Below, piece by piece: positions 1 to 12,626 of a stretch of 64,000 nucleotides of DNA. The notes below the pieces were generated by a model. The model was not told the DNA's origin. It did not search any database and worked only from the letters and a program-made list of their open reading frames with translations. The stretch comes from an uncultured bacterium (lineage in GTDB: Bacteria; Acidobacteriota; HRBIN11; JAKEFK01), in assembly GCA_963777505.1 (NCBI GenBank), contig CAVZQN010000004.1, forward strand, positions 960,001 through 1,024,000, read 5' to 3'. Position 1 is the stretch's first letter; every line of letters begins with the position of its first letter. Both the position numbers and the translations under genes were made by a program.

Positions 1-196
<196 letters not shown>

Positions 197-211
197 AAAA
201 TGTAATGATCG

Positions 212-1597
212 CTACGGACGCCACGTTTCACCCATACGCCAATCGATAATTTCCGTTCGTGCTTCAGAAATCGCAGGTTCAATACCGAGCGCTTGCAGCA
301 TGCTTGATTCGTTCGAAGGAGCATTTCCAATCTCGCACCACAAATGTGAATAGGGAAGGAATGTTTTTGCTCCGGTAATTCTGCAAATCTCAGCGACACC
401 GTCTGGCCCTAATGTAATCAGGTCAGATATTTGCGGGAATTTTGCAATTTGATCCGCGGTTAAGGAGAGCCAATAGAGTCCGTTGCCTGTAACGTAAAAT
501 GGGTTTCCACAGCCAACGCCTACCTGGAATTCCTGTAAATTGCTTAACACCACATCCACTCTTCCATAGTGATGTTTTACGTATTCAGCAACCTGATTCA
601 TCGAACCATTCGCATCTGATCCCGAATCAATCAAACAAAAAGCAGAAAAAAACGGCGTTCGGAAAAAATAAGAATTGCCCCAGTTTCTCAGGCGCTTATC
701 GCGTGGATACTCATATCTCAATGGTTGTTCACCGTAAAATGGAAGCGCCGAAATTTCAATGTCATCAACGTATACAGGATCTGAATACCAATCAAGATCA
801 ATAACATTTTTGAACCCCATGGCGCGAAGTTCTTTGGCGAAATCAGGACTCAGAATAGTTGCTTCATTTACACGAGGTACGATGATGAGGATGTCACGCG
901 GGAGTGTTAGCAATGAAGGAATATGATAATGATCTCTATGGGAGTGAGTTATTAAAACGGCGTCAACTATTCCAATGAAATTTTGGGGCAACATCCGTGA
1001 AGTAGTTTGAAGATTAGAGCTATAGCCGGAAACAAAATGAGGATCAACGATAATCCGTGCCTTAAGAGTGTTAAGCAAGAATGAGGCGTGCTGTAATCGG
1101 ACGATTCCGACTTCTTGAGGCTGAAGTCTCCAATTCGTTTCAACAAGATCTTCGACAAATATTTCCGCATCGAAAAGCGCTTGAATCAGTTTTTGATAAG
1201 GACTCTTGCTGAACAGGTCAGTTCTTTGATTTGCTTTTTCCAGAAGAAGAATTGTTTCGCCAACTTCGAAAACCTCCTTGTCGGTAAGATGATTCAGAGA
1301 AACACATTTTCCTGAAAAATTATTGCGAAATACAAACGTGTCAATTCTGTTGTTCTTATCAAAAAGTAAGCAGGACTTAAGCCCGAAATCGGATGAAACG
1401 TTTTCAAAAGATTCGGCTGCTTCAGGGAAAGGTTTTGATGCAGCATCAACAGCAGCCTGGATTGATATTCCTGAACGGATGTCGCGGGCTACTTTCGAAA
1501 TAAATGGTCTTAACGATGCAATGAGCCGGTCTGAAATCTTTCTCTCAGCATGAATCGTTGCGTTTGTTGAAATCATACAGCACCTGAATGTAAGCAT
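212..1597 (-). CDS. MBL-fold metalloenzyme (possible diiron hydroxylase) with N-terminal extension
   Basis: HASFLL...IIVDP, ITHSHRDH metal motif, PFYGEQP, DSG; about 150-aa N-terminal extension. Confidence 0.8.
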   Translation of the reverse strand: MLTFRCCMISTNATIHAERKISDRLIASLRPFISKVARDIRSGISIQAAVDAASKPFPEAAESFENVSSDFGLKSCLLFDKNNRIDTFVFRNNFSGKCVSLNHLTDKEVFEVGETILLLEKANQRTDLFSKSPYQKLIQALFDAEIFVEDLVETNWRLQPQEVGIVRLQHASFLLNTLKARIIVDPHFVSGYSSNLQTTSRMLPQNFIGIVDAVLITHSHRDHYHIPSLLTLPRDILIIVPRVNEATILSPDFAKELRAMGFKNVIDLDWYSDPVYVDDIEISALPFYGEQPLRYEYPRDKRLRNWGNSYFFRTPFFSAFCLIDSGSDANGSMNQVAEYVKHHYGRVDVVLSNLQEFQVGVGCGNPFYVTGNGLYWLSLTADQIAKFPQISDLITLGPDGVAEICRITGAKTFLPYSHLWCEIGNAPSNESSMLQALGIEPAISEARTEIIDWRMGETWRP

Positions 1598-1678
1598 AAC
1601 CTGAAAGGCTCTTCAGGTTTGATTCAATTGGCATCTGCGATATGATGAACTTACCAAAACACCAGGAGGGGTTGAAGT

Positions 1679-2584
1679 ATGTCGGACCCTATTTCAAAAG
1701 GTGGATCCAAGCCACCATCTCAAGTCAACAAGCAAACCGAAATATCATCCACTCCGGAATCAACAGCGAAAGATTCCGCACAGATTCAAAAGAGTTCCAC
1801 TCCTCAAGAAACGCAAGATCCCAAGAAGTTAGCAAAGGCTAAAGGAGAACTCGCTTCGACCAAGAAATTTGATATGCAGCTGCAATCAATGAGTCAAAAA
1901 CTTGCGGCTGAACTTCCCAAAAAGGAAGCAACCGATCTAAGCTCATTGCCTGGACAAGTTCCAGGAAAGGTGTTGGACCAAAAGCTTGATGTCGCAGCGC
2001 CTGCATGTACAGGAACTTTGTTGTCCACATGCGGAGTGACTGATACGAAACCAACTGTATGCGATACGCTGTCAGGCTGTACAAAACCAACAACGGATCT
2101 GGGTTCAATCCCTGGCCGCACGCCTGGCACTATATTGGACCAAAAGCTTGATGTAGCAGCGCCAGCATGTACAGGAACTTTGTTGTCCACATGCGGAGTG
2201 ACTGATACGAAGCCAACTGTATGCGATACGCTGTCAGGCTGTACAAAACCAACAACGGATCTGGGTTCAATCCCTGGCCGCACGCCTGGCACTATATTGG
2301 ATCAAAAGCTTGATGTCGCAGCGCCAGCATGTACAGGAACTTTGTTGTCCACTTGCGGAGTGACTGATACGAAACCAACTGTATGCGATACGCTTTCAGG
2401 CTGCACAAAACCAACAACGGATCTGGGTTCAATCCCTGGCCGTACGCCTGGAACTATATTGGATCAAAAGCTTGATGTAGCAGCGCCAGCATGTACAGGA
2501 ACTTTGTTATCCACTTGTGGAGTGACTGATACAAAGCCGACAGTATGCGATACATTGTCAGGCTGCACCGGTTCTTTGAGGTAA
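1679..2584 (+). CDS. Putative multi-core RiPP (lanthipeptide) precursor
   Basis: RBS GGAGG; ~84-aa low-complexity N-terminus, then 4 copies of LDQKLDVAAPACTGTLLSTCGVTDTKPTVCDTLSGCT; adjacent to the LanM-like gene. Confidence 0.8.
   Translation: MSDPISKGGSKPPSQVNKQTEISSTPESTAKDSAQIQKSSTPQETQDPKKLAKAKGELASTKKFDMQLQSMSQKLAAELPKKEATDLSSLPGQVPGKVLDQKLDVAAPACTGTLLSTCGVTDTKPTVCDTLSGCTKPTTDLGSIPGRTPGTILDQKLDVAAPACTGTLLSTCGVTDTKPTVCDTLSGCTKPTTDLGSIPGRTPGTILDQKLDVAAPACTGTLLSTCGVTDTKPTVCDTLSGCTKPTTDLGSIPGRTPGTILDQKLDVAAPACTGTLLSTCGVTDTKPTVCDTLSGCTGSLR
1931..2569 (+). repeat. Four tandem 162-bp coding repeats (54 aa)
   Basis: AAAGCTTGATGT recurs at 1981, 2143, 2305 and 2467; differences within the core region are synonymous. 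Confidence 0.97.
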
Positions 2585-2605
2585 TTTTGTCCGTGAATGG
2601 TGGCT

Positions 2606-5600
2606 TTATTCAAGCCACCATTCGATTTTTCCTTCCGATGCAACTTTGCAGACAAGACGTTTTTGATCCAGCACAACAATAATCACAACACGGTTATCGC
2701 TCTCTGTTCTGACAACTCGAATGCCAAGATCTGGTTCGTGAAAATCGAATGGTCCTTTCGGAACGATTTGCCAAACTATATCTACGACAGCACGTACAAG
2801 ACGATTTGGCTCCGCTTGATTTTCAACAACTGACCAAAATGGCGTGACGGTTTTTATTTCAGGAAAACTCCGCTCTAGAACTGGCCCACGATTTTGTTGA
2901 TCGATCCAGTAAATATTCCCATCTTCTCCGAGAATCCTAAAATAATACGGAATATCAAAACGATCGAGTTGTTTGATTTCGGAAGAGACAAGTGGCCGCG
3001 CTAGAAGAAAAGATTGGGTCATAGCGATTCCAGCAATAGGAAAGCCTCCGAGTTTTCGATCCAGCAGCGCAGCGAAATAACTTCGCGTAGGGTTGAGAAC
3101 AATCCGCATCGAAGCCCCTGTCAATTTTTCTTTCAGGTGATCCGCAATTTCTTTTGCATGAGCCTGGACCATCAACCATTGATCAGCGAAGCCACGCAAA
3201 ATTGTACAGACATGCTTTGTATATCCAAATGATCCATCCGAATTTTGCGCAAGATGCGGCCAGATCCAGTTGACTGCTTTCCAGGGTTTTGTAACAGGCT
3301 TAGGCCCATCCGATGTAATTTCAATTACCCAATCCTCAGAATTCAATCCACAATAAAGCGATGGTAAGGATAAAGGTGAGTGAGAATGAGGCACGACTTC
3401 GACACCCCAACGAGGTCCTTCAAGTAATTGCGTATCTTCCAGATCAATCACATTTCCAAACGCCATTTCTAAATCCACTGCATGAATTGAAATAAGAGGA
3501 GTGGATTGAGTGGTGCCGCTAACTACATTTTCTGAATGTAGATCAAATACTCCAAGACTAAAGGCATATCCCGCTAAGAGTCCTGCCGAATACCAGAATC
3601 GTTTTTCATCATGCTCTTTGAGCCGTGAAACTTGAGGCAGTGGAAAGTTGCCAGACTGTGAAAGCGGATTTAACTCGTCATCAAGTGGAAAAGTAACAAT
3701 GTCTGTGCTGTTTATTTGCTCCACATAACCATGTTTTGGACCAGCAACGATGATCCGATGTGTCGGTAACTGGGCGTTTGCAAAAGCAGGGCGAAGCCAC
3801 GCACGGCATTTTTCGGCAAGCGTCTCACCGTCATTACCAGCGGATGCGCCAGCTAACTCTCGATCGATCGCAACTGAGCGTCCTTTGTATAAAAATTGTG
3901 CTCCGTTTTCAAACAAAAGTGAGACGACACGATGCCCTCCAAAGTGTGGATCGCTTCCAAGCACTTGTATTCTGGTTAAGCGGCCTCCAATCTGTTGAGC
4001 AAGGACGCCTTGACGATCTGTCTCAAGCCGTTGAAACATGACTTCAAGTGCACTGATCGCCCCCGCAGTTAATTGCTTTGCAGCGCGTTTAACATTTGAA
4101 GCATTCCCTTCTGGATGCAAAACAATACCGGCAATCTCCCTAAGTACTCGTCCCATGATTGCAGGAGTCAATGCCTCTTTATTAACGAAACTTCCGTAAC
4201 GCTTGCTCCATTGGTGACATGATTTCTTTACTTCGTCCAGAGCTTGAAAATATGAATCCCCAGCAGGACAATTGGAAATTTGTTTCAGAATCGAATGCGC
4301 GTCATTCGGTTGCAGTTGGCCTACAACTAAAAAGTTTGCGTCGTTCTTAAATCGAATTCCGCCGGGTGGCAAAAGTTCAGCAGGAATTTGATATGACGAA
4401 AACTTTTTACCGGCTTTTTTGTTTAATCGTTTGGTCGATCTCAATAAAATTGGATCGCGATTCATTGTTAAGATTGGAAAAACAGGATAGCCGGATAATC
4501 TCAGCATTTGCCTGACGATTCCGCCTGTGCCCAGACCAAGTGAGGGGCCTCCACCTTCAGGCTTCAACGCATCTCGCCTGACTGCGGCGCGATTCTTCAT
4601 TCTGTTCGCGATGGACTGCGCACGTTTCGTCCAAATCTCGGAACCAGTTTCATCTGCCATATCTAAAAAGAGTTCAATCGCGCCTGTCAGGCCATGACAA
4701 TGACAAAATGGTTCATCATGATTGTCGGCCAGCGAATTCCATGTTGCATGAGCTGCAGATTCTGCAATTTCAAGCGCTGATGGATCCTTCAAAAGCCGAT
4801 GACGCGCTAGATATGCGTGACTGATTCCTGTGGAACCATGACACCAATGATCTTGAATCACACGATGTTCATCGCTGCGAGGCCATGCTGTTCCATTTCG
4901 GATACGAAATGATCTTGAATTCAACCAATCAAATGCTCCATCTAAAAGTGTTTTTGTAGCGGGATCTTTGGTTACGTGGAACAACTCAAGAAGAAACAAA
5001 CAGATTCCTGCAGCCCCATGGGCAAGGCCAGTGTGGGTCTGTGTCGCTAATTCACCATACGTTTGATCATTTGGAGGAAGCGGTTGTCTTCGATCTCGCA
5101 CAGGCCAGGCGAACATTCCACCAAAGTCGATTCGAGTCTCTTCAAGGAAAGAAGCTGCCTTCTTCGCATGTTCAAGAAACGATGCATCATGAGTTGCATA
5201 ATATAGTGCCAGAAATAGCCATCCTGTTCCCGCAGCACCTCTAAAGAGATCAGTATCTACGTGAGAAGTTTGTGAGAGAAGATTTCCGGCATGAATGGCA
5301 TAATCTAAATATCGTTGATCTTTAAGAACCCTCGCACAGGCAAGATGGAAAAGACCAACTCCTGCAAAACCGCTGTACAGGCCGTTAGCAATCGAGTCGG
5401 ATTCAGGAGTGCTTATCACCAACCCATAGGAAATTTCCTCAACTGTCTTTGCATAGCGAGAATCTCCGGTTGCACTGTAAAGATCCAATAACACGATTCC
5501 AATTCCAGCAGAGCCATCATATAACTTGAATTCATACCTTCCTTCAGTTCCAGTCTTTAGATCAGCAGGAAATCGAAGTCCCAGCGTAGTCGCGGTTCTT

Positions 5601-5680
5601 CGTTTCAGAATTTCGTCGCCTCCTTGAAGCGCCATCTTAAAATATGAATTTGTATTCTTCTGTTTTTTCTTGATACGCAT
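2606..5680 (-). CDS. Lanthipeptide synthetase, LanM-like with reversed domains (N-terminal LanC cyclase, C-terminal DUF4135 dehydratase)
   Basis: N half: LYDGSAG, GLYSGFAG, GLAHGAAG, WCHG, CHCHG. C half: SDPHFGG, LYKGRS, DLHSEN, VDLE, RIVLNPTRSY, QLDRFDIPYYF. Confidence 0.88.
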   Translation of the reverse strand: MRIKKKQKNTNSYFKMALQGGDEILKRRTATTLGLRFPADLKTGTEGRYEFKLYDGSAGIGIVLLDLYSATGDSRYAKTVEEISYGLVISTPESDSIANGLYSGFAGVGLFHLACARVLKDQRYLDYAIHAGNLLSQTSHVDTDLFRGAAGTGWLFLALYYATHDASFLEHAKKAASFLEETRIDFGGMFAWPVRDRRQPLPPNDQTYGELATQTHTGLAHGAAGICLFLLELFHVTKDPATKTLLDGAFDWLNSRSFRIRNGTAWPRSDEHRVIQDHWCHGSTGISHAYLARHRLLKDPSALEIAESAAHATWNSLADNHDEPFCHCHGLTGAIELFLDMADETGSEIWTKRAQSIANRMKNRAAVRRDALKPEGGGPSLGLGTGGIVRQMLRLSGYPVFPILTMNRDPILLRSTKRLNKKAGKKFSSYQIPAELLPPGGIRFKNDANFLVVGQLQPNDAHSILKQISNCPAGDSYFQALDEVKKSCHQWSKRYGSFVNKEALTPAIMGRVLREIAGIVLHPEGNASNVKRAAKQLTAGAISALEVMFQRLETDRQGVLAQQIGGRLTRIQVLGSDPHFGGHRVVSLLFENGAQFLYKGRSVAIDRELAGASAGNDGETLAEKCRAWLRPAFANAQLPTHRIIVAGPKHGYVEQINSTDIVTFPLDDELNPLSQSGNFPLPQVSRLKEHDEKRFWYSAGLLAGYAFSLGVFDLHSENVVSGTTQSTPLISIHAVDLEMAFGNVIDLEDTQLLEGPRWGVEVVPHSHSPLSLPSLYCGLNSEDWVIEITSDGPKPVTKPWKAVNWIWPHLAQNSDGSFGYTKHVCTILRGFADQWLMVQAHAKEIADHLKEKLTGASMRIVLNPTRSYFAALLDRKLGGFPIAGIAMTQSFLLARPLVSSEIKQLDRFDIPYYFRILGEDGNIYWIDQQNRGPVLERSFPEIKTVTPFWSVVENQAEPNRLVRAVVDIVWQIVPKGPFDFHEPDLGIRVVRTESDNRVVIIVVLDQKRLVCKVASEGKIEWWLE

Positions 5681-5778
5681 AAGACAATCCGAAATGAGGA
5701 TTATAATTGGTTTTGTTCCTGAACTGCGGATTCTAACCGGTGAAGGCTATTTACCGGTTATATTGTGTCATTGATTCT

Positions 5779-6363
5779 ATGAAAATATTTAACCACCAGC
5801 TCCCACTTGATTTGTGCAAGAACATTTGTGATTTTGCATTGAACCAGATCCTGAATGTTGATTTCAAAAAGGCTCCGGTAACAATGTGGACTAATTTTGG
5901 ATGGCCTCAGCACATTGTCAAAGACAGTACGGCCGTATTGATCTTTCTTACTCCGCGGCAATTTCTAGAAGAGATTCAAAGCTGTCTCGAAGAATTAGCA
6001 ATTTTTAATGCAGAGGTCGATTTACCTTTTATCAATGAAAGTAATCCTGATTTGTGTTCTCTTTGTTTGACTTACGTGTGGACTCGAAATTCGTACATCC
6101 CGGTTCATCGTGATGGAAAGCATAGAAAAACCGTGACTATTTATTGCAATGAGAAGTGGACTCCTGAGATGGGTGGAGTCTTACAATGGTTCGATTCTGA
6201 AAAGAATGCATGGGATGAGGTTGTCCCATCCTGCGGAACTATTGTGTTCAATGATAAAGATGAAGCACATGCTACAACTCCTGTGCTCGCTCACAATGAT
6301 TTCAGGATCAGTCTTCAAATTTTTATATTGTCTTCAGGGCAGGCGGGGTCTATTCAATATTGA
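5779..6363 (+). CDS. 2OG-Fe(II) oxygenase (prolyl-hydroxylase-like)
   Basis: HRD...W..EMGG.L...HATTPV...RISLQ: HxD..H..R motif. The start could be 5740. Confidence 0.8.
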   Translation: MKIFNHQLPLDLCKNICDFALNQILNVDFKKAPVTMWTNFGWPQHIVKDSTAVLIFLTPRQFLEEIQSCLEELAIFNAEVDLPFINESNPDLCSLCLTYVWTRNSYIPVHRDGKHRKTVTIYCNEKWTPEMGGVLQWFDSEKNAWDEVVPSCGTIVFNDKDEAHATTPVLAHNDFRISLQIFILSSGQAGSIQY

Positions 6364-6369
6364 GCAGCA

Positions 6370-7026
6370 TCATTTCCAGTTTGGCCCTTCCATCCATGCA
6401 ACAAGAGAGTGCCTCGTCCCTTTTGTTACAGGCGTGACTTCATGTTCAAGAAATGAAGGAAAGATAATTGCAGCGAGGAATTCCCTTCTTTGTTGAATGT
6501 TCTTCGAATAATTTGCCTGGTTGAGAATCAAGTCATTTTTATCGCCAAACAGGAGCAAATCTCCGCCTTCATAATTTTCGGGAGGAGTGAGTTGTATTGT
6601 AAGAGACAGTTTGCGCTGAGTATCAATCCATCCTGTCAAGCATGTATCAATATGAGATTTGTAAAATTGGCCGCTCTCATCGTTCACTCCAGCAGTGTAC
6701 TCCGCTAACTGGATCGTTTGGATTGTATCAATCGCAAAATGATATTTTTGTGAATTGATAGCGTTGAGTAATGCCGAAATTTTATCGTATATCCAGGATG
6801 TATCTTCGGAACGATTCACCCAGCAAACTGTATTATTTCTAATATACTCAGGGCGCGGTTGATCGTTTTGTTGATCGCTAACTTTAGTGCCCGCTCTGCG
6901 TAATTTTCCGGACTCCTTTTCGCCTGTCTGAAAATACTGCAATAAACGATCCCGTTCTTCAATTGTGAGAAATTGGAGTACGACTACAGGATTGATGTCG
7001 AAAAGTTCATGTTTTTCAGAAGTCAC
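6370..7026 (-). CDS. 2OG-Fe(II) oxygenase (PKHD-type)
   Basis: HID...RKLSLTIQL...YEGGDL...FPSFLEHEVTPVTKGTRHSLVAW. Confidence 0.88.
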   Translation of the reverse strand: MTSEKHELFDINPVVVLQFLTIEERDRLLQYFQTGEKESGKLRRAGTKVSDQQNDQPRPEYIRNNTVCWVNRSEDTSWIYDKISALLNAINSQKYHFAIDTIQTIQLAEYTAGVNDESGQFYKSHIDTCLTGWIDTQRKLSLTIQLTPPENYEGGDLLLFGDKNDLILNQANYSKNIQQRREFLAAIIFPSFLEHEVTPVTKGTRHSLVAWMEGPNWK

Positions 7027-7038
7027 GCTATTGAAATT

Positions 7039-7422
7039 TCAGTTCTTTTTAGGAGTCTTGAAAAATTTGTTCAATTCCCATTTTCGGTAGAGACCGCGGA
7101 AGGCAAAACCGGCGCTTTTTGATGTTGACTTTGGGTGGTCCAATGGTCGTTGAAATAAACCTTTGACTACCATCGTAACGCTATTATCTGCTACCACGCT
7201 GGCCGGGTTACTTCGAACAACCAGATTCTGAGATTCAAAATCGCCCAACTCTACTGTTACACCATTTACCGTAATAGAAAGGCTGCCATTTGCTTCACTG
7301 AGGAATAGAATATCGTCTTCATGAGCATCGAGTAAAATTGCGCCATTTTCAATCCGCAATTCTGAACCCGATCCGATAACGCCTCCGGGAAATTCGTTAT
7401 CCGGATCTGATTTCAATTTCAT
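7039..7422 (-). CDS. Hypothetical protein
   Basis: GGGAGG RBS before the ATG at 7422; beta-rich segment LSITVNGVTV. Confidence 0.6.
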   Translation of the reverse strand: MKLKSDPDNEFPGGVIGSGSELRIENGAILLDAHEDDILFLSEANGSLSITVNGVTVELGDFESQNLVVRSNPASVVADNSVTMVVKGLFQRPLDHPKSTSKSAGFAFRGLYRKWELNKFFKTPKKN

Positions 7423-7547
7423 TCGATGATCGCCCTCCCGCTCTCGTCGGTCTAAGGATATCATAAGCCTACTGAACGCTGAGTTTCAGTCGATGATTAG
7501 GGCAATGATGTTTGTTTGAGGGGGACGGATCACGTAAGAAAAATAAA

Positions 7548-8013: not shown

Positions 8014-8184
8014 AGTTACCTCCAGTGGAAATTAACTCAGGAGGTTCACCATGGACGCCACTATTAAAGTTAGGTTTGAACTCCGTATATTCAACCTGTC
8101 ATCAATACTTTGTTGCTCGTTCCCACTTGAAGCAGAGAGCGTTAAAATGTGCAATGAAAGGTTAGGTTGCATCAAGGAGGAGGA

Positions 8185-8706
8185 ATGAAATCTGCTATTG
8201 GGTTCATTGCGGTTCTGCTGCTGATTGGATGTTCATCCAAACATCCGAACATTTCCGAATTTCCCGCACCAGTCACTCTTACCAAAGATGTATGCAGCCG
8301 CGAACCGGAGCTTTGCGAAAAATCTTGCGCAGATTGTAAAGATCGCAAAGATTGCATGTTGAATAACGGAGTGTGCAAAACAGGCGGACTACACTTTAAT
8401 GACTCCGGAGATACGGGTAACGATATCTGGACACCCGGATGTCATTACGAATATAAAGATGCTGCTTGCGCGCAAAACCAGAATTTTTTTCTGGGTGATA
8501 TCTGCGGGACGAAAAATCCTAAGGAAATCATCGAGTGGACTGTTTCGGCTTGCCATGGTGCGATCGGAGATCGGGAAATATTTGACTGTGATAAAGAATG
8601 CAAGCGTGCGGATCTAGGAAGGGGTACATGCGTCGTTGTACCAAATGTCTGCGCAGGAAAGGACAGTGCTGCGTGCAAATGTGATAAGCCGTTACCGACT
8701 CCGTAA
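8185..8706 (+). CDS. Cysteine-rich lipoprotein
   Basis: RBS GGAGGAGG; lipobox LLIG-C; 16 further Cys. Confidence 0.75.
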   Translation: MKSAIGFIAVLLLIGCSSKHPNISEFPAPVTLTKDVCSREPELCEKSCADCKDRKDCMLNNGVCKTGGLHFNDSGDTGNDIWTPGCHYEYKDAACAQNQNFFLGDICGTKNPKEIIEWTVSACHGAIGDREIFDCDKECKRADLGRGTCVVVPNVCAGKDSAACKCDKPLPTP

Positions 8707-8772: not shown

Positions 8773-8872
8773 TGCACCAACTAAAGTTAGGTCTAAAACC
8801 CTGTCCATGGGACCAGCCTGCTTCTTGTTCGTGCCTCGATAATGAGAAGTGTTGAATTTCTTTGGAGGTAAC

Positions 8873-9778
8873 ATGAACAAGGTTGGATCAACGTCATCAA
8901 GTCCTTATACAGGTCAGATTCCAGGTGCCGAAACAAACGAGAAAATCAAAAGCCCGGCGCAATCACCCGCTGAATCTCCAATAACGCTAGATAAGAGCGT
9001 CAAACAAGAAGCTAAAACACGCGAAAGTGATTCTGATTTGCAGGCATCAGTTCGGAAAGAAACTTTGTTTGCTCAAGTAGATAAGCCCAAAACCGGAGGC
9101 GCAAGCGAAGCAAAATTCGTTGAAAGAAACTTAAAGAGCGATGCAGAGGTTAGAAAATTTGCCACTGAAAAAGCTTTTCCCGCAATTATGAAAGGGCTGG
9201 AGAAATCAGGTTTAGGAACCACCGAAGAAACCTGTAATCTTGCAGCAGGAATGCTCATGACGGCATTGAAAAAACAAGGAATCGAAGGAGCAAAGATCCG
9301 TTTCACAGCCAATCATGCATTCGTTGAAGTTCCTACAAAAAAGGGAACATTGATTCTCGATCCGACTGCAGGTCAGTTTTTTAAAGAAGGAAGTGAAATC
9401 AAATCAAAATTGAAAGCAGAAGGTTTTGTTGGAACGAAAGAAGAATTAAAAAAGACGATCCGTGAAAATATTATGGATTGGAAACATGAGTCGAATTTAG
9501 AGTTCCATCCAAACGTAGTAAAAGTAATTCAGGGAGAACGAATGGATAAGGAAAGTACCAGGGTTGCGGAAGCGCAAATCGACGACTTAGCTCATGTTGC
9601 TGAATTACGATATTTTTCAGGAGTAGATTATAGCGGCCCCGGTGATGACGCGATCAAGCAACACGAATGGTATGAAAAGGGCGACTTGGATCAGCCTTTC
9701 ATTAATAAGCTCAAGTCCGACATGGGCCCAACATTAAAGACCGCATATGAAACGATGGAGAAGGAACTGCTGAAATAA
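8873..9778 (+). CDS. Transglutaminase/papain-fold protein with low-complexity N-terminus
   Basis: RBS GGAGG; putative Cys-His-Asp triad TCNLAAG...NHAFVEV...ILDPTAGQF. Confidence 0.65.
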   Translation: MNKVGSTSSSPYTGQIPGAETNEKIKSPAQSPAESPITLDKSVKQEAKTRESDSDLQASVRKETLFAQVDKPKTGGASEAKFVERNLKSDAEVRKFATEKAFPAIMKGLEKSGLGTTEETCNLAAGMLMTALKKQGIEGAKIRFTANHAFVEVPTKKGTLILDPTAGQFFKEGSEIKSKLKAEGFVGTKEELKKTIRENIMDWKHESNLEFHPNVVKVIQGERMDKESTRVAEAQIDDLAHVAELRYFSGVDYSGPGDDAIKQHEWYEKGDLDQPFINKLKSDMGPTLKTAYETMEKELLK

Positions 9779-9845: not shown

Positions 9846-11675
9846 ATGTGTGGAATCGTCGGGTATATCGGGAAGAAGGAAGTTGTTCCAGTTTTAATCG
9901 ATAGCTTAAAGCGATTGGAATATCGCGGCTACGATTCAGCAGGTATTGCTGTAGTAAATGATGGCGAATTGGTTATTCGCCGTGCCGCTGGCAAACTTAC
10001 CAATCTTGAAGATGTCTTAAAGACGAATCCCGTGCGTGGTCTATACGGAATTGGACATACGCGCTGGGCTACACATGGGCGTCCAACCGAAGAGAATGCC
10101 CATCCTCATCGTGATTGTAAGAATCGCATCGTCGTTGTTCATAACGGCATCATTGAAAATTATCTTGAGTTGAAGCATGCGCTGATAAAAGATGGCCATC
10201 GTTTTGTAACTGAAACCGATACGGAAATCGTCGCGCATTTAATCGAAAAATATTACGAAGGCAATTTACAAAAAGCAGTTTTGAAAGCGTTTGCGGAAAT
10301 TCGTGGCGTTTATGCGATCGTGGCTTTAAGTGTCGATGAGCCCAACATGATTATTGGAGTGCGGAATGGCCCTCCACTCGTAATTGGAATTGGAAAGGAT
10401 GAATATTTTATTGCGAGTGATGTTTCTGCGCTATTGCAGCATACGCGGGAATTTATTTTCCTGGACAATCAGGAAATGGCAATCATTAGTCCGGAAGGTT
10501 CACGCATCGTATCGCTCAATGGTGAGGCCGTGAACCGTGAACCGCACCAGGTTAATTGGGATCCTGTTCAAGCTGAAAAAGGTGGATATAAACATTACAT
10601 GCTCAAAGAAATTTTTGAGCAGCCCCGCGCGATTCGTGAAACAATTGTCGATCGATTTTCACTCGAATCAGGCAAAATTCATCTGAATGGATTTCAATTC
10701 AGTGAAGCAGATCTTGCTGCAGTCCAAAAAATTAATCTAATCGCTGCCGGAACTTCATGGCATGCGGCACTTGTTGGTAAATTCTTACTGGAAGAACTGA
10801 CGCGTATTCCTACTGAAGTCGATATCTCTTCCGAATTTCGATATCGCAAGCCAATCATTCAACCCGGAACGCTTACAGTTGCAATTACTCAATCTGGTGA
10901 AACGGCAGATACGATTGCTGCGATTCGTGAAGCAAAAAAACTTGGCTCATTAACTTTGTCGATTACGAATGTTGCAGAAAGTATGATTGTTCGCGAAACG
11001 CAAGGTGCTTTGCTGACTCATGCCGGACCCGAAATCGGAGTTGCATCTACAAAAGCATTCACAACTCAACTCACTGCATTTTATCTTTTGGCACTCTATT
11101 TGGCTGAGCTGCGGAATACTTTGAGTGTGCAAGAACGGGTTGAAAGAATCCAGGGTCTGACAACGATTGCGAATCTTGTTGAAGCAATTTTGGAAAGACA
11201 CGAATCGCTTGAAGAAATTGCAAAGAAATATCACAACTGCACCGATTTCCTTTATCTTGGACGCGGCCTGAATTATCCAATCGCATTGGAAGGCGCTCTC
11301 AAACTGAAAGAAATTTCATATATCCATGCGGAAGGATATCCAGCCGGTGAAATGAAACATGGTCCTATTGCATTGATCGATGAGAAAATGCCTGTTGTGG
11401 CATTAATGCCGAAAGACAGACATTTTGAAAAAATCTGCAGCAATGTAAATGAAGCGCGTTCGCGTGAAGGGAAAATAATAGCCATTGCAACTGAAGGTGA
11501 AGAAAGTGTCCGTGATATCGCTCATGATGTTTTCTTTATTCCTGATACGGATCCGCTTCTGACTCCAATTTTGACTGTCATTCCTCTCCAACTCCTTGCG
11601 TATTACATTGCAATCCGCCGCGGTTGCGATGTGGATCAACCACGCAATTTGGCGAAGTCCGTAACTGTCGAGTAA
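9846..11675 (+). CDS. glmS: Glutamine-fructose-6-phosphate transaminase
   Basis: MCGIVG N-terminus, GHTRWATHG, QSGETAD, C-terminal PRNLAKSVTVE. Confidence 0.99.
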   Translation: MCGIVGYIGKKEVVPVLIDSLKRLEYRGYDSAGIAVVNDGELVIRRAAGKLTNLEDVLKTNPVRGLYGIGHTRWATHGRPTEENAHPHRDCKNRIVVVHNGIIENYLELKHALIKDGHRFVTETDTEIVAHLIEKYYEGNLQKAVLKAFAEIRGVYAIVALSVDEPNMIIGVRNGPPLVIGIGKDEYFIASDVSALLQHTREFIFLDNQEMAIISPEGSRIVSLNGEAVNREPHQVNWDPVQAEKGGYKHYMLKEIFEQPRAIRETIVDRFSLESGKIHLNGFQFSEADLAAVQKINLIAAGTSWHAALVGKFLLEELTRIPTEVDISSEFRYRKPIIQPGTLTVAITQSGETADTIAAIREAKKLGSLTLSITNVAESMIVRETQGALLTHAGPEIGVASTKAFTTQLTAFYLLALYLAELRNTLSVQERVERIQGLTTIANLVEAILERHESLEEIAKKYHNCTDFLYLGRGLNYPIALEGALKLKEISYIHAEGYPAGEMKHGPIALIDEKMPVVALMPKDRHFEKICSNVNEARSREGKIIAIATEGEESVRDIAHDVFFIPDTDPLLTPILTVIPLQLLAYYIAIRRGCDVDQPRNLAKSVTVE

Positions 11676-11740: not shown

Positions 11741-12626
11741 CTACTCAGTTACTCGGATTTCTTCGATGGTTGCGGTTGTTTGCACAACTTTGAAACTAAC
11801 ATTGGATGAGGCCGGCACGGGTCCGGCGGGGACAGTCATTATTACCTGTCCGTTTACTGAAATCACAAACGCGGTGCCATCGTATTGGAGGCCGACTGTA
11901 TAAGTGACTCCGGGATCAAGCTGGAATGGTGCGGATTTCTTGGCCACGAGTACTCCGCCGGATCTTTGCCTGAACATCACCTTGTTAAGTCGTTCCCTAA
12001 GAATCAGCGAAACGCCATTCTGTTTGTCCTGTCTCCAATCCAAAATGATTTTGTCGAATATGCCGCCGGATGACTGGAGATCTACTTCAACGGTGCACGT
12101 GCTGCAGCCGAACACTCCTGATGGACTCCATGGTAGGGGCGCGAAGACCTGCGCCCTGCTGGAGCCGGTGCAAACAAGCGCGCCGGAATTTTCCTGGCAC
12201 GAACCTTTAACGACGTCCCAATCCATTACACCATCTTCGAAGTCATCGAAAAGCAGGTATGGAATAGTTTCAAACTCGGCCGTGACTGTTGTATCGGAGC
12301 TTAAGGTCACATTGCAGATTTCGTTGTTGGCTCCCGATGTGGAATCGCATCCGGTCCAACCATCAAAAAAGGAGTTGCTATCCGGTGATGCGGTAATCGC
12401 GAAGACTGTGCCGCTGTCTGCCTGTTGACTGCAATCTCCTGATTCTGTACCAGCGGTACTGCTACAGTTGATCGTTCCGCCTGGTGTTGTGTCCACCATC
12501 GTTCCGTTTCCGGTGCCTGTGCCGGCCGTTGTGAGAATCGGGTGTAGGGTGAAGGTAGCCGTTATGGTAAGGCTGCTCTGATTCACGGCAATGTTGCATG
12601 TGTCATTTGTTATATTTGTAGTACTA
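11741..12626 (-). CDS. Frameshifted C-terminal part of the S8 protease (InlB-B-type repeat plus shared ~170-aa C-terminal domain)
   Basis: Removing one T at ~12626 joins GWTGCDSA to STTNITNDTC; contains a second TTPGGTINC...GWTGCD repeat. Confidence 0.75.

Follow-up and report, generated by a model that had tools for sequence, protein, structure and literature searches.

The window analysed here is a stretch of 64,000 nucleotides (nt) from an uncultured bacterium of the Acidobacteriota (contig CAVZQN010000004.1, positions 960,001 to 1,024,000). At positions 1679-5680 of the window two genes converge. One encodes a Cys/Thr-rich repeat protein with the layout of a multi-core peptide precursor. 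The other encodes a protein of 1024 amino acids (aa), here called the synthetase, in which a LanC-like cyclase domain precedes a DUF4135-type dehydratase domain. The features of the two genes are as follows, in window positions.

1619..1646, + strand: weak promoter-like site, TTGATT-16-TATGAT (9 of 12 consensus matches)
1664..1671, + strand: Shine-Dalgarno-like AGGAGGGG (AGGAGG box) in the intergenic sequence, 7 nt before the ATG
1679..1972, + strand: leader, residues 1-98, with a Ser/Thr/Lys-rich N-terminus and a conserved stretch at about residues 45-80 (translation)
1973..2134, + strand: unit 1, 54 aa, with an LDQK..VAAPA recognition-like stretch, a four-Cys core and a spacer (repeat analysis)
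2135..2296, + strand: unit 2, identical to unit 1 as a peptide; 3 nt differ from unit 1, all synonymous
2297..2458, + strand: unit 3, identical to unit 1 as a peptide; 7 and 8 nt differ from units 1 and 2, at synonymous third positions
2459..2584, + strand: unit 4, 41 aa, ending five residues past its last Cys, and the stop codon; 11-14 synonymous differences from units 1-3
2594..2624, + strand: terminator-like hairpin, 13-bp stem and T-run, overlapping the 3' end of the synthetase gene (consensus match only)
2606..5680, - strand: reversed-order synthetase gene, whole, 1024 aa (open reading frame, translation, Pfam, protein search)
4496..5533, - strand: N-terminal LanC-like cyclase domain, residues 50-395 (Pfam, genome scan, conserved ligand positions)
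2609..4381, - strand: C-terminal DUF4135-type kinase/phosphate-lyase (dehydratase) domain, residues ~434-1024 (Pfam, CylM profile alignment, Foldseek)

The precursor gene is an open reading frame (ORF) at 1679-2584 (+) that encodes 301 aa; within it, 3.7 copies of a 162-bp sequence follow one another in tandem with 95% matches. Its product consists of the 98-aa leader, three identical units of 54 aa and a shorter fourth one (41 aa); each unit has 4 Cys and 11-15 Ser/Thr, and the core reads C-T-G-T-L-L-S-T-C ... C-D-T-L-S-G-C. The differences between the units are synonymous, those in unit 4 that are not being confined to the last compared codon, so purifying selection acts on the peptide of every copy. 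The product matches no Pfam or NCBIfam family. The stop codons of the two genes, at 2584 and 2606, are separated by 21 bases. The promoter-like site is not evidence alone, because the scan gave 13 such sites and 15.6 are expected from shuffled sequences. In another assembly, of nearly the same organism, the precursor (P0032) has 265 aa and three units with an out-of-frame tail. Collapse may have lowered the repeat number in some assemblies, and for the four units of the window the present assembly is the basis.

The order of the domains in the synthetase follows from the positions of the Pfam matches. LANC_like covers residues 50-395 (E 2.4e-47, 161.7 bits against a cut-off of 23.2), and DUF4135 (PF13575) matches in two stretches (E 4.8e-22, 79.1 bits against a cut-off of 29), the better of which places residues 531-615 on profile positions 5-93; the cyclase is therefore first and the dehydratase second. 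In the genome scan, dehydratase profile positions 11-611 map onto the C-terminal domain. The translation contains the cyclase motifs GLAHG (218-222), HWCHG (278-282) and CHCHG (326-330), and the dehydratase motifs YK (598-599), DLHSEN (713-718), DLE (736-738) and R859-x5-T865. The first-pass annotation of this DNA had read a LanC fold followed by DUF4135, had listed these motifs and had proposed a profile check of the order; the Pfam scan bears out the order, and every motif listed is present in the translation of 2606-5680. The same scan found no protein kinase or lyase domain in the synthetase. The NCBIfam models for LanM, LanL and LanKC all match the same cyclase part, each below its own cut-off; the LanL model NF038150, for example, matches residues 21-395 with its cyclase part only (profile 477-843; E 1.6e-53, 182.3 bits against a cut-off of 650). 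The best match of the cyclase half in the PDB is 8car, a kinase-cyclase fusion, and LANCL2 and GCR2 can be aligned with this half at its HWCHG and CHG motifs. The genome of the window, which is 95.86% complete, has a single LanC-like gene, and that is the gene for this synthetase.

Profile alignment of the C-terminal domain with CylM gives three aligned blocks, eight residues in all: D252/H254, K274 and D347/H349/N352 of CylM correspond to D577/H579, K599 and D713/H715/N718 of the synthetase, and R506/T512 to R859/T865. According to the available part of the CylM study (PMC4550811), D252, H254, R506 and T512, each of them mutated, are the residues of the elimination step, and those of phosphorylation are the first set of the aligned residues together with D364; mutants in the residues of both steps lose activity. 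Conservation was assessed in 39 distinct full-length members of the family. Seven dehydratase residues (H579, K599, D713, N718, D736, E738 and R859) and five cyclase residues (H221, C280, H281, C328 and H329) are invariant in all 39, and D577 and H715 (37 of 39 each) and T865 (38 of 39) are only slightly less well kept. C280, C328 and H329 occupy what we take, from the NisC and LANCL literature, to be the zinc-ligand positions. Both halves of the synthetase thus look catalytically intact from their sequences, and the earlier description of the enzyme as intact stands with the CylM-equivalent residues and zinc positions kept in 37-39 of the 39 relatives.

An AlphaFold model of the C-terminal domain built from nine sequences has a predicted local distance difference test (pLDDT) value of 63.4 and a predicted template modelling score (pTM) of 0.67. 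In a Foldseek search of the PDB with this model, CylM (5dzt, E 2.1e-7) and LicM2 (6st5, E 4.3e-7) are the sole two matches at E ≤ 0.001, and VPS34/PI3K lipid kinases come next. A kinship of CylM with lipid kinases has been reported before, and the order of the Foldseek matches agrees with it. A single-sequence phmmer search of the PDB with the C-terminal half found no LanM and returned only a chance match to a beta-lactamase (E 1.6), which was discarded; a profile search is needed for this domain.

The reversed architecture is real, recurrent and rare. Among 5.8 billion proteins, a word-seeded search found 17 matches, 16 of them full-length with both Pfam families (1003-1054 aa, 97-100% query coverage, 34-99% identity). 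In DNA scans, 5 of 10 genome loci and 9 of 15 metagenome loci contained a full-length relative; the five genome loci are labelled as an uncultured bacterium, a Gemmatimonadales metagenome-assembled genome (MAG), a Gemmatimonas MAG, a Gemmatimonadetes MAG and an uncultured Thermodesulfovibrio, and one close relative is labelled Acidobacteriota. By Pfam, the cyclase also comes first in nine synthetases from related loci, of which one is broken by a frameshift, and in nine of nine further full-length representatives. A search of 1.84 billion representatives with the C-terminal profile gave 4361 proteins at E ≤ 0.001, and among the best 150 of these 4361 the cyclase stands in front in 12 full-length representatives and in fragments. 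In the phylum of the window the architecture occurs in 2 of 401 sampled genomes, namely the window genome and one of the same genus. The databases name the proteins of the family only 'LanC family protein' or 'DUF4135 domain-containing protein'. That the reversed order results from an assembly chimera or a frame error was rejected, because independent assemblies agree on the same full-length architecture. The first-pass annotation had called the system the best candidate in the window for an undescribed one, and no description of a cyclase-first DUF4135 enzyme turned up in the literature searched, the scope of which did not extend to subscription journals, supplements or InterPro architecture tables, which may contain it.

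The association with a repeat precursor is also kept. Two related loci, L001 (five units) and L011 (three units; the N-terminus of the precursor is cut by the contig end), have an orthologue of the repeat gene that converges with the synthetase gene; their synthetases are 67% and 50% identical to that of the window. The first-pass annotation, which had pointed to a Cys/Thr-rich multi-core protein convergent with the synthetase and had suggested surveying homologues for neighbouring repeat precursors, is thus confirmed on both points, by the four units seen in the window and by the multi-core orthologues beside the synthetases of L001 and L011. A database search gave 14 related precursors with three to five units, and the leader is kept in L001, L011 and 13 further database proteins. 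Across these relatives a unit is made up of the conserved sequence L-(D/Q)-Q-K-x-x-V-A-x-P-A; a core that starts with C-(T/S)-G-(T/S)-L-(L/M/F)-(S/T)-T-C and contains two further conserved Cys (one in L011); and a Pro/Gly-rich spacer. Every core of the precursor relatives has three to five conserved Cys. The residues between the second and third Cys differ among the units of one precursor and the flanking stretches are constant. The final unit ends zero to five residues past the last Cys.

When 444,222 bases were scanned in six frames, the motif C-x-[TGS]-[GTS]-h-h-[ST]-T-C was found solely in ORFs adjoining reversed synthetases: four times in the window, five times in L001, three times in L011, and once each in L002 and the group L012/13/14. 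In L002 (the Gemmatimonadales MAG) and L012-L014 (freshwater contigs) it lies in short single-core peptides with a leader ending in Gly-Gly (GG), a motif that the multi-core precursors lack. The multi-core precursor looks to be derived from such a single-core form. A third group of loci (L003 and L016-L020, including L019) contains Cys/Thr-rich peptides that share a MARIKIKDL...GG leader, together with genes for a C39-ABC exporter, HlyD, B12-binding radical S-adenosylmethionine (SAM) enzymes, YcaO and TfuA. There is a Cys/Thr-rich peptide beside the synthetase in each subgroup, and every subgroup of the family is in a setting like that of peptides made by the ribosome and modified after translation (RiPPs). 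Two loci of the third group have a second precursor-like peptide downstream of the synthetase with a leader of the MA(R/K)IK(I/L)KDL type, one without Cys (L017, 13239-13430) and one with a Trp-rich core (L019, 5723-5914). These may be substrates of the adjoining radical SAM enzymes.

The origin of the enzyme was examined with a tree for each domain. In the dehydratase tree (104 domains), a branch with a support of 100 in the Shimodaira-Hasegawa-like approximate likelihood ratio test (SH-aLRT) parts 44 rows from 60. On one side are 38 canonical LanM and six rows without a detected cyclase domain; on the other are 19 reversed enzymes and 41 dehydratase-only rows, two of which branch within the reversed clades and resemble pieces of such enzymes. 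In the cyclase tree (81 domains), 18 of 18 reversed enzymes are on one side of a branch with a support of 99, and they are closer to the kinase-fused group (minimum path 2.72) than to LanM (3.38). The nearest proteins to the cyclase half outside the family are kinase-fused cyclases, several of them named LanL, and among the listed neighbours outside the family only one other contains DUF4135. The closest outside relatives of the C-terminal domain (E 1e-62 to 1e-30) are DUF4135-DUF6624 fusions and stand-alone DUF4135 proteins, which in the dehydratase tree fall with the reversed enzymes on the side away from LanM. Their DUF4135 is N-terminal, DUF6624 is C-terminal in 13 of the 18 full-length ones scanned, and no LanC-like domain was detected in them by Pfam.

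Both domains of the synthetase therefore fall outside the sampled canonical LanM clades, as judged from their sequences. Most likely, the enzyme arose when a LanL-like cyclase was joined to a DUF4135 dehydratase from a branch outside LanM, rather than by rearrangement of a LanM; circular permutation of an existing LanM was considered and is the less likely origin according to both of the unrooted trees. The earlier term 'domain-permuted LanM' is accordingly apt as a description of the order and probably wrong as history, both halves being outside canonical LanM. The fusions with DUF6624 form a family of about 750-1200 aa (P0052, P0054-P0057, P0059-P0061, P0063, P0065, P0067, P0075 and P0078), and the term DUF6624 was not found in the literature searched. 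Another DUF4135 arrangement is seen in P0154 (1105 aa), which has an N-terminal B12-binding radical SAM part and DUF4135 at about 657-1061; its dehydratase domain branches among the canonical LanM ones.

The genes next to the pair include three putative oxygenases and a conserved ORF:

212..1597, - strand: metallo-beta-lactamase (MBL)-fold protein, 461 aa, candidate CmlA-like non-heme diiron oxygenase (Pfam Lactamase_B_3, E 1.5e-6)
5779..6363, + strand: 2-oxoglutarate (2OG)-Fe(II) oxygenase 1 (2OG-FeII_Oxy_3, E 2.1e-7; L001 68%, L011 61% identity)
6370..7026, - strand: 2OG-Fe(II) oxygenase 2, PKHD/P4H-like (Pfam, E 1.9e-13; PDB 3dkq, E 2.8e-5; L001 72%, L011 58% identity)
7039..7464, - strand: conserved 141-aa ORF without a Pfam or NCBIfam match (L001 orthologue 65% identical)

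The best PDB matches of the MBL-fold protein are a diiron monooxygenase (8a90, E 4.5e-11) and CmlA (4jo0, E 9.2e-9), ahead of hydrolases. The alignment to these two covers residues 165-292 and matches the H-x-H-x-D-H and G-E positions, presumably metal ligands. CmlA_N is present in 92% of one look-alike cluster of this protein, a lead from the protein atlas, and a model from three sequences (pLDDT 44.3) was too poor for a fold search. The sequence makes the protein a candidate hydroxylase. The ORF of oxygenase 1 opens at a GTG at 5740, and its homologues align from the Met at 5779; in the PDB it had no significant match (best E 0.29). Six genes are shared with L001 (the MBL-fold gene, the precursor, the synthetase, both 2OG oxygenases and the 141-aa ORF) and four with L011 (the precursor, the synthetase and both 2OG oxygenases). 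L001 has two MBL-fold copies beside the precursor (68% and 49% identity). A third 2OG oxygenase is present in L001 and in L011, and L011 adds a BBE-type flavin adenine dinucleotide (FAD) oxidase and an M28 peptidase.

Taken together, it is probable that the locus is a functional RiPP cluster in which one reversed enzyme carries out both lanthipeptide steps on the four-unit precursor. The analysis establishes how the genes are built, the domain order, the fold, the kept catalytic residues, the synteny, the common core motif and the purifying selection on all units; the chemistry, the modified residues, the topology of the rings, any release of the cores and its manner, and export go beyond these observations and are inferred. 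The enzyme would bind the precursor through the leader, through the conserved stretch of each unit, or through both. The C-terminal DUF4135-type domain would then phosphorylate Ser/Thr with adenosine triphosphate (ATP) and eliminate the phosphate to give dehydro-amino acids, to which the N-terminal zinc LanC-like domain would add Cys thiols, forming thioether rings. The two 2OG-Fe(II) oxygenases and the CmlA-like diiron protein probably hydroxylate the cores. One translation product would give several modified cores. The first-pass annotation had proposed that the synthetase acts on the repeat protein. The pairing of the two holds through synteny and the core motif, and the action itself is inferred. 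A complex prediction for the C-terminal domain with precursor residues 45-152 gave a median of 0.50, against 0.01 for the best of three controls, with at least 21% contact agreement and a partner pLDDT of at least 43 in the runs; its support for the pairing is weak. The mark used is reached by 116 of 157 solved pairs and 2 of 215 mismatched pairs, and it is reached at a value of 0.60 or less by 18 of the 157 solved pairs and by both of the mismatched ones.

Several observations weigh against this interpretation. A complex pass of this weak kind is more often wrong than right unless the pairing is likely beforehand. Among sequencing runs, only two DNA runs matched, with 5-6% of the sampled words, and no RNA run was listed. 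In each core the conserved P-A is immediately followed by the first Cys, and no Ser/Thr immediately precedes this Cys; either at least one ring would have to close in the rarer orientation, with Cys before Ser/Thr, or the first Cys is used otherwise. No leader protease or exporter is present in the conserved gene set, and no Peptidase_C39 domain in the window genome; the release of separate cores is therefore unsupported. The equivalence of the catalytic residues rests on a sequence profile, with D736 and its counterpart CylM D364 outside the printed alignment, and the catalytic loops of the C-terminal model have pLDDT values below 50. The NCBIfam LanM model TIGR03897 gives the synthetase 193.5 bits, under its cut-off of 304. 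In L001, the closest genome relative, a one-base frameshift splits the synthetase into ORFs of 800 and 199 aa. As to the origin, both trees were obtained by a quick search, are unrooted, contain rows picked by similarity to the query and carry long-branch warnings, because of which they favour an independent fusion and do not prove it. The frameshift of L001 lies at 12343-12345, at the same place in G041 and outside any homopolymer run, and may reflect gene decay or an error of sequencing or assembly.

The lack of release genes bears directly on the main alternative, which we consider unlikely and in which the cores are modified and never separated, the product being one long polypeptide with four crosslinked, hydroxylated modules, for example a secreted or surface structural or metal-binding protein. 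Besides the conserved cluster without protease or exporter and the genome without a C39 domain, it would account for the missing GG motif of the multi-core precursors and for the spacers, which would be conserved Pro/Gly-rich linkers. The variation between the second and third Cys within constant flanks is, however, the pattern of precursors that release different products, and the last unit stops shortly past its final Cys as a released core would. Moreover, L011 has an M28 peptidase gene in its cluster, and the single-core relatives with GG leaders are precursors of the ordinary cleaved type. If the precursor were instead an unrelated low-complexity neighbour and the true substrate were encoded elsewhere, its convergent gene, not co-transcribed with that of the synthetase, and its lack of any Pfam or NCBIfam match would cause no surprise. 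This is very improbable, since the window, L001 and L011 all have the pair, at least seven of the database precursors are taken to share a contig with a reversed synthetase, distant reversed synthetases too have the core motif in a short GG-leader peptide beside them and the rest of the 444 kb lacks it, and the genome has no other LanC-like gene.

A chemistry other than that of lanthipeptides has also to be weighed. The DUF4135 domain may dehydrate or only phosphorylate, the cyclase-like domain may serve in substrate binding as in CcaM, and dehydration may need earlier hydroxylation. In the part of the study available (PMC10676384), the DUF4135-cyclase fusion CcaM makes dehydro residues without lanthionine, after another modification. 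The reversed synthetases of L003 and L019 are beside YcaO and radical SAM genes (TfuA as well in L003), and the three putative oxygenases of the window cluster could supply a prior modification. The cyclase of CcaM has no zinc ligands, however, and here all 39 relatives have C280, C328, H329 and H221. With three to five conserved Cys in every core, these invariant zinc positions are hard to explain without thiol chemistry, and we regard a CcaM-like role as distinctly unlikely. The lanthipeptide interpretation is preferred in what follows.

Lanthipeptide synthetase classes are sorted by enzyme architecture, and LanL enzymes consist of lyase, kinase and cyclase domains. The synthetase resembles LanL in that its N-terminal cyclase half matches the LanL model and its nearest cyclases outside the family are kinase-fused. 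It differs from LanL in having no kinase or lyase domain, so that dehydration would come from DUF4135. LanM is defined, in the consulted portion of PMC13509491, by an N-terminal DUF4135 dehydratase and a C-terminal cyclase. As in LanM (CylM 5dzt, LicM2 6st5), one polypeptide contains a DUF4135 kinase/phosphate-lyase and a zinc LanC-like cyclase, the alignable catalytic residues of CylM are all kept, and the dehydratase half is of the same fold. Unlike LanM, the synthetase has the cyclase first, a LanM score below the cut-off, both domains outside the sampled LanM clades and a multi-core precursor. CcaM has its dehydratase at 1-645 and a zinc-free class III-type cyclase at 645-1015 (PMC10676384, accessible text). 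Like CcaM and the other LanMbC enzymes of the dehydrazoles, the synthetase joins a divergent DUF4135 to a non-LanM cyclase, and the family members in L003 and L019 are accompanied by YcaO (in L003 also TfuA), as in dehydrazole clusters. Unlike these enzymes, it has the opposite domain order and invariant zinc positions; among the window cluster genes no YcaO was found by Pfam. The enzyme thus shares parts with LanM, LanMbC and LanL and fails a defining feature of each.

The precursor is comparable to those of microviridins and cyanobactins, in which one leader is followed by tandem cores with conserved recognition-like flanks and the cores vary between units. The difference is in the chemistry, predicted here to give thioether rings instead of ATP-grasp or heterocyclase products. 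The processing of multi-core precursors is treated for microviridins in PMC5934393, as far as its available text goes. Multi-core precursors have not been reported for lanthipeptides, according to the accessible part of a paper of July 2026. It appears that the chemistry of the locus is presumably familiar, and that the enzyme architecture and the precursor layout are new. The fuller proposal is that of an undescribed type of synthetase, a LanL-like zinc cyclase fused in front of a non-LanM DUF4135 independently of LanM, which in one lineage would use the first multi-core lanthipeptide precursor, its three to five cores each with a recognition stretch, to make a small library of hydroxylated thioether peptides. 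On this proposal as a whole we are evenly divided.

A bifunctional enzyme with the cyclase first and DUF4135 second fits no class found in the literature searched, and with both domains outside canonical LanM it would add another independent pairing of a dehydratase with a cyclase. Through its reversed order, the enzyme offers a natural experiment on the influence that the arrangement of domains has on leader binding and on transfer between the two active sites. The 15 natural precursors, with three to five cores and variation within a precursor, would be useful for engineering peptide libraries. The family ties lanthipeptide chemistry to CmlA-like diiron and 2OG oxygenases in the window, and to YcaO/TfuA and B12-radical SAM enzymes in relatives. 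Its members are all from uncultured soil and freshwater lineages.

The cluster is flanked in the window by glmU, which runs into the window at 2-196, and by glmS (9846-11675), two genes that are often adjacent. In L001 one flank contains pseudouridine synthase and lgt genes, and the other a sigma factor. These differing flanks, together with the patchy distribution, suggest that the cluster is a movable island. Short matches of window positions 164-205 elsewhere in the genome were considered as a mobile element and rejected, the segment being an A-rich low-complexity run. Between the cluster and glmS there are two further ORFs on the + strand. The one at 8167-8706 encodes 179 aa with a lipoprotein-like signal (…LLLIGCSS…) and many Cys, has no family match and is not conserved in L001; that at 8849-9778 (309 aa) has a sub-threshold match to the papain-like domain Tox-PLDMTX (E 0.0073, 16.9 bits against a cut-off of 26.1), probably by chance. 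An IS200-like Y1 transposase gene is located about 6 kb to the left of the cluster (L027, 9082-9855).

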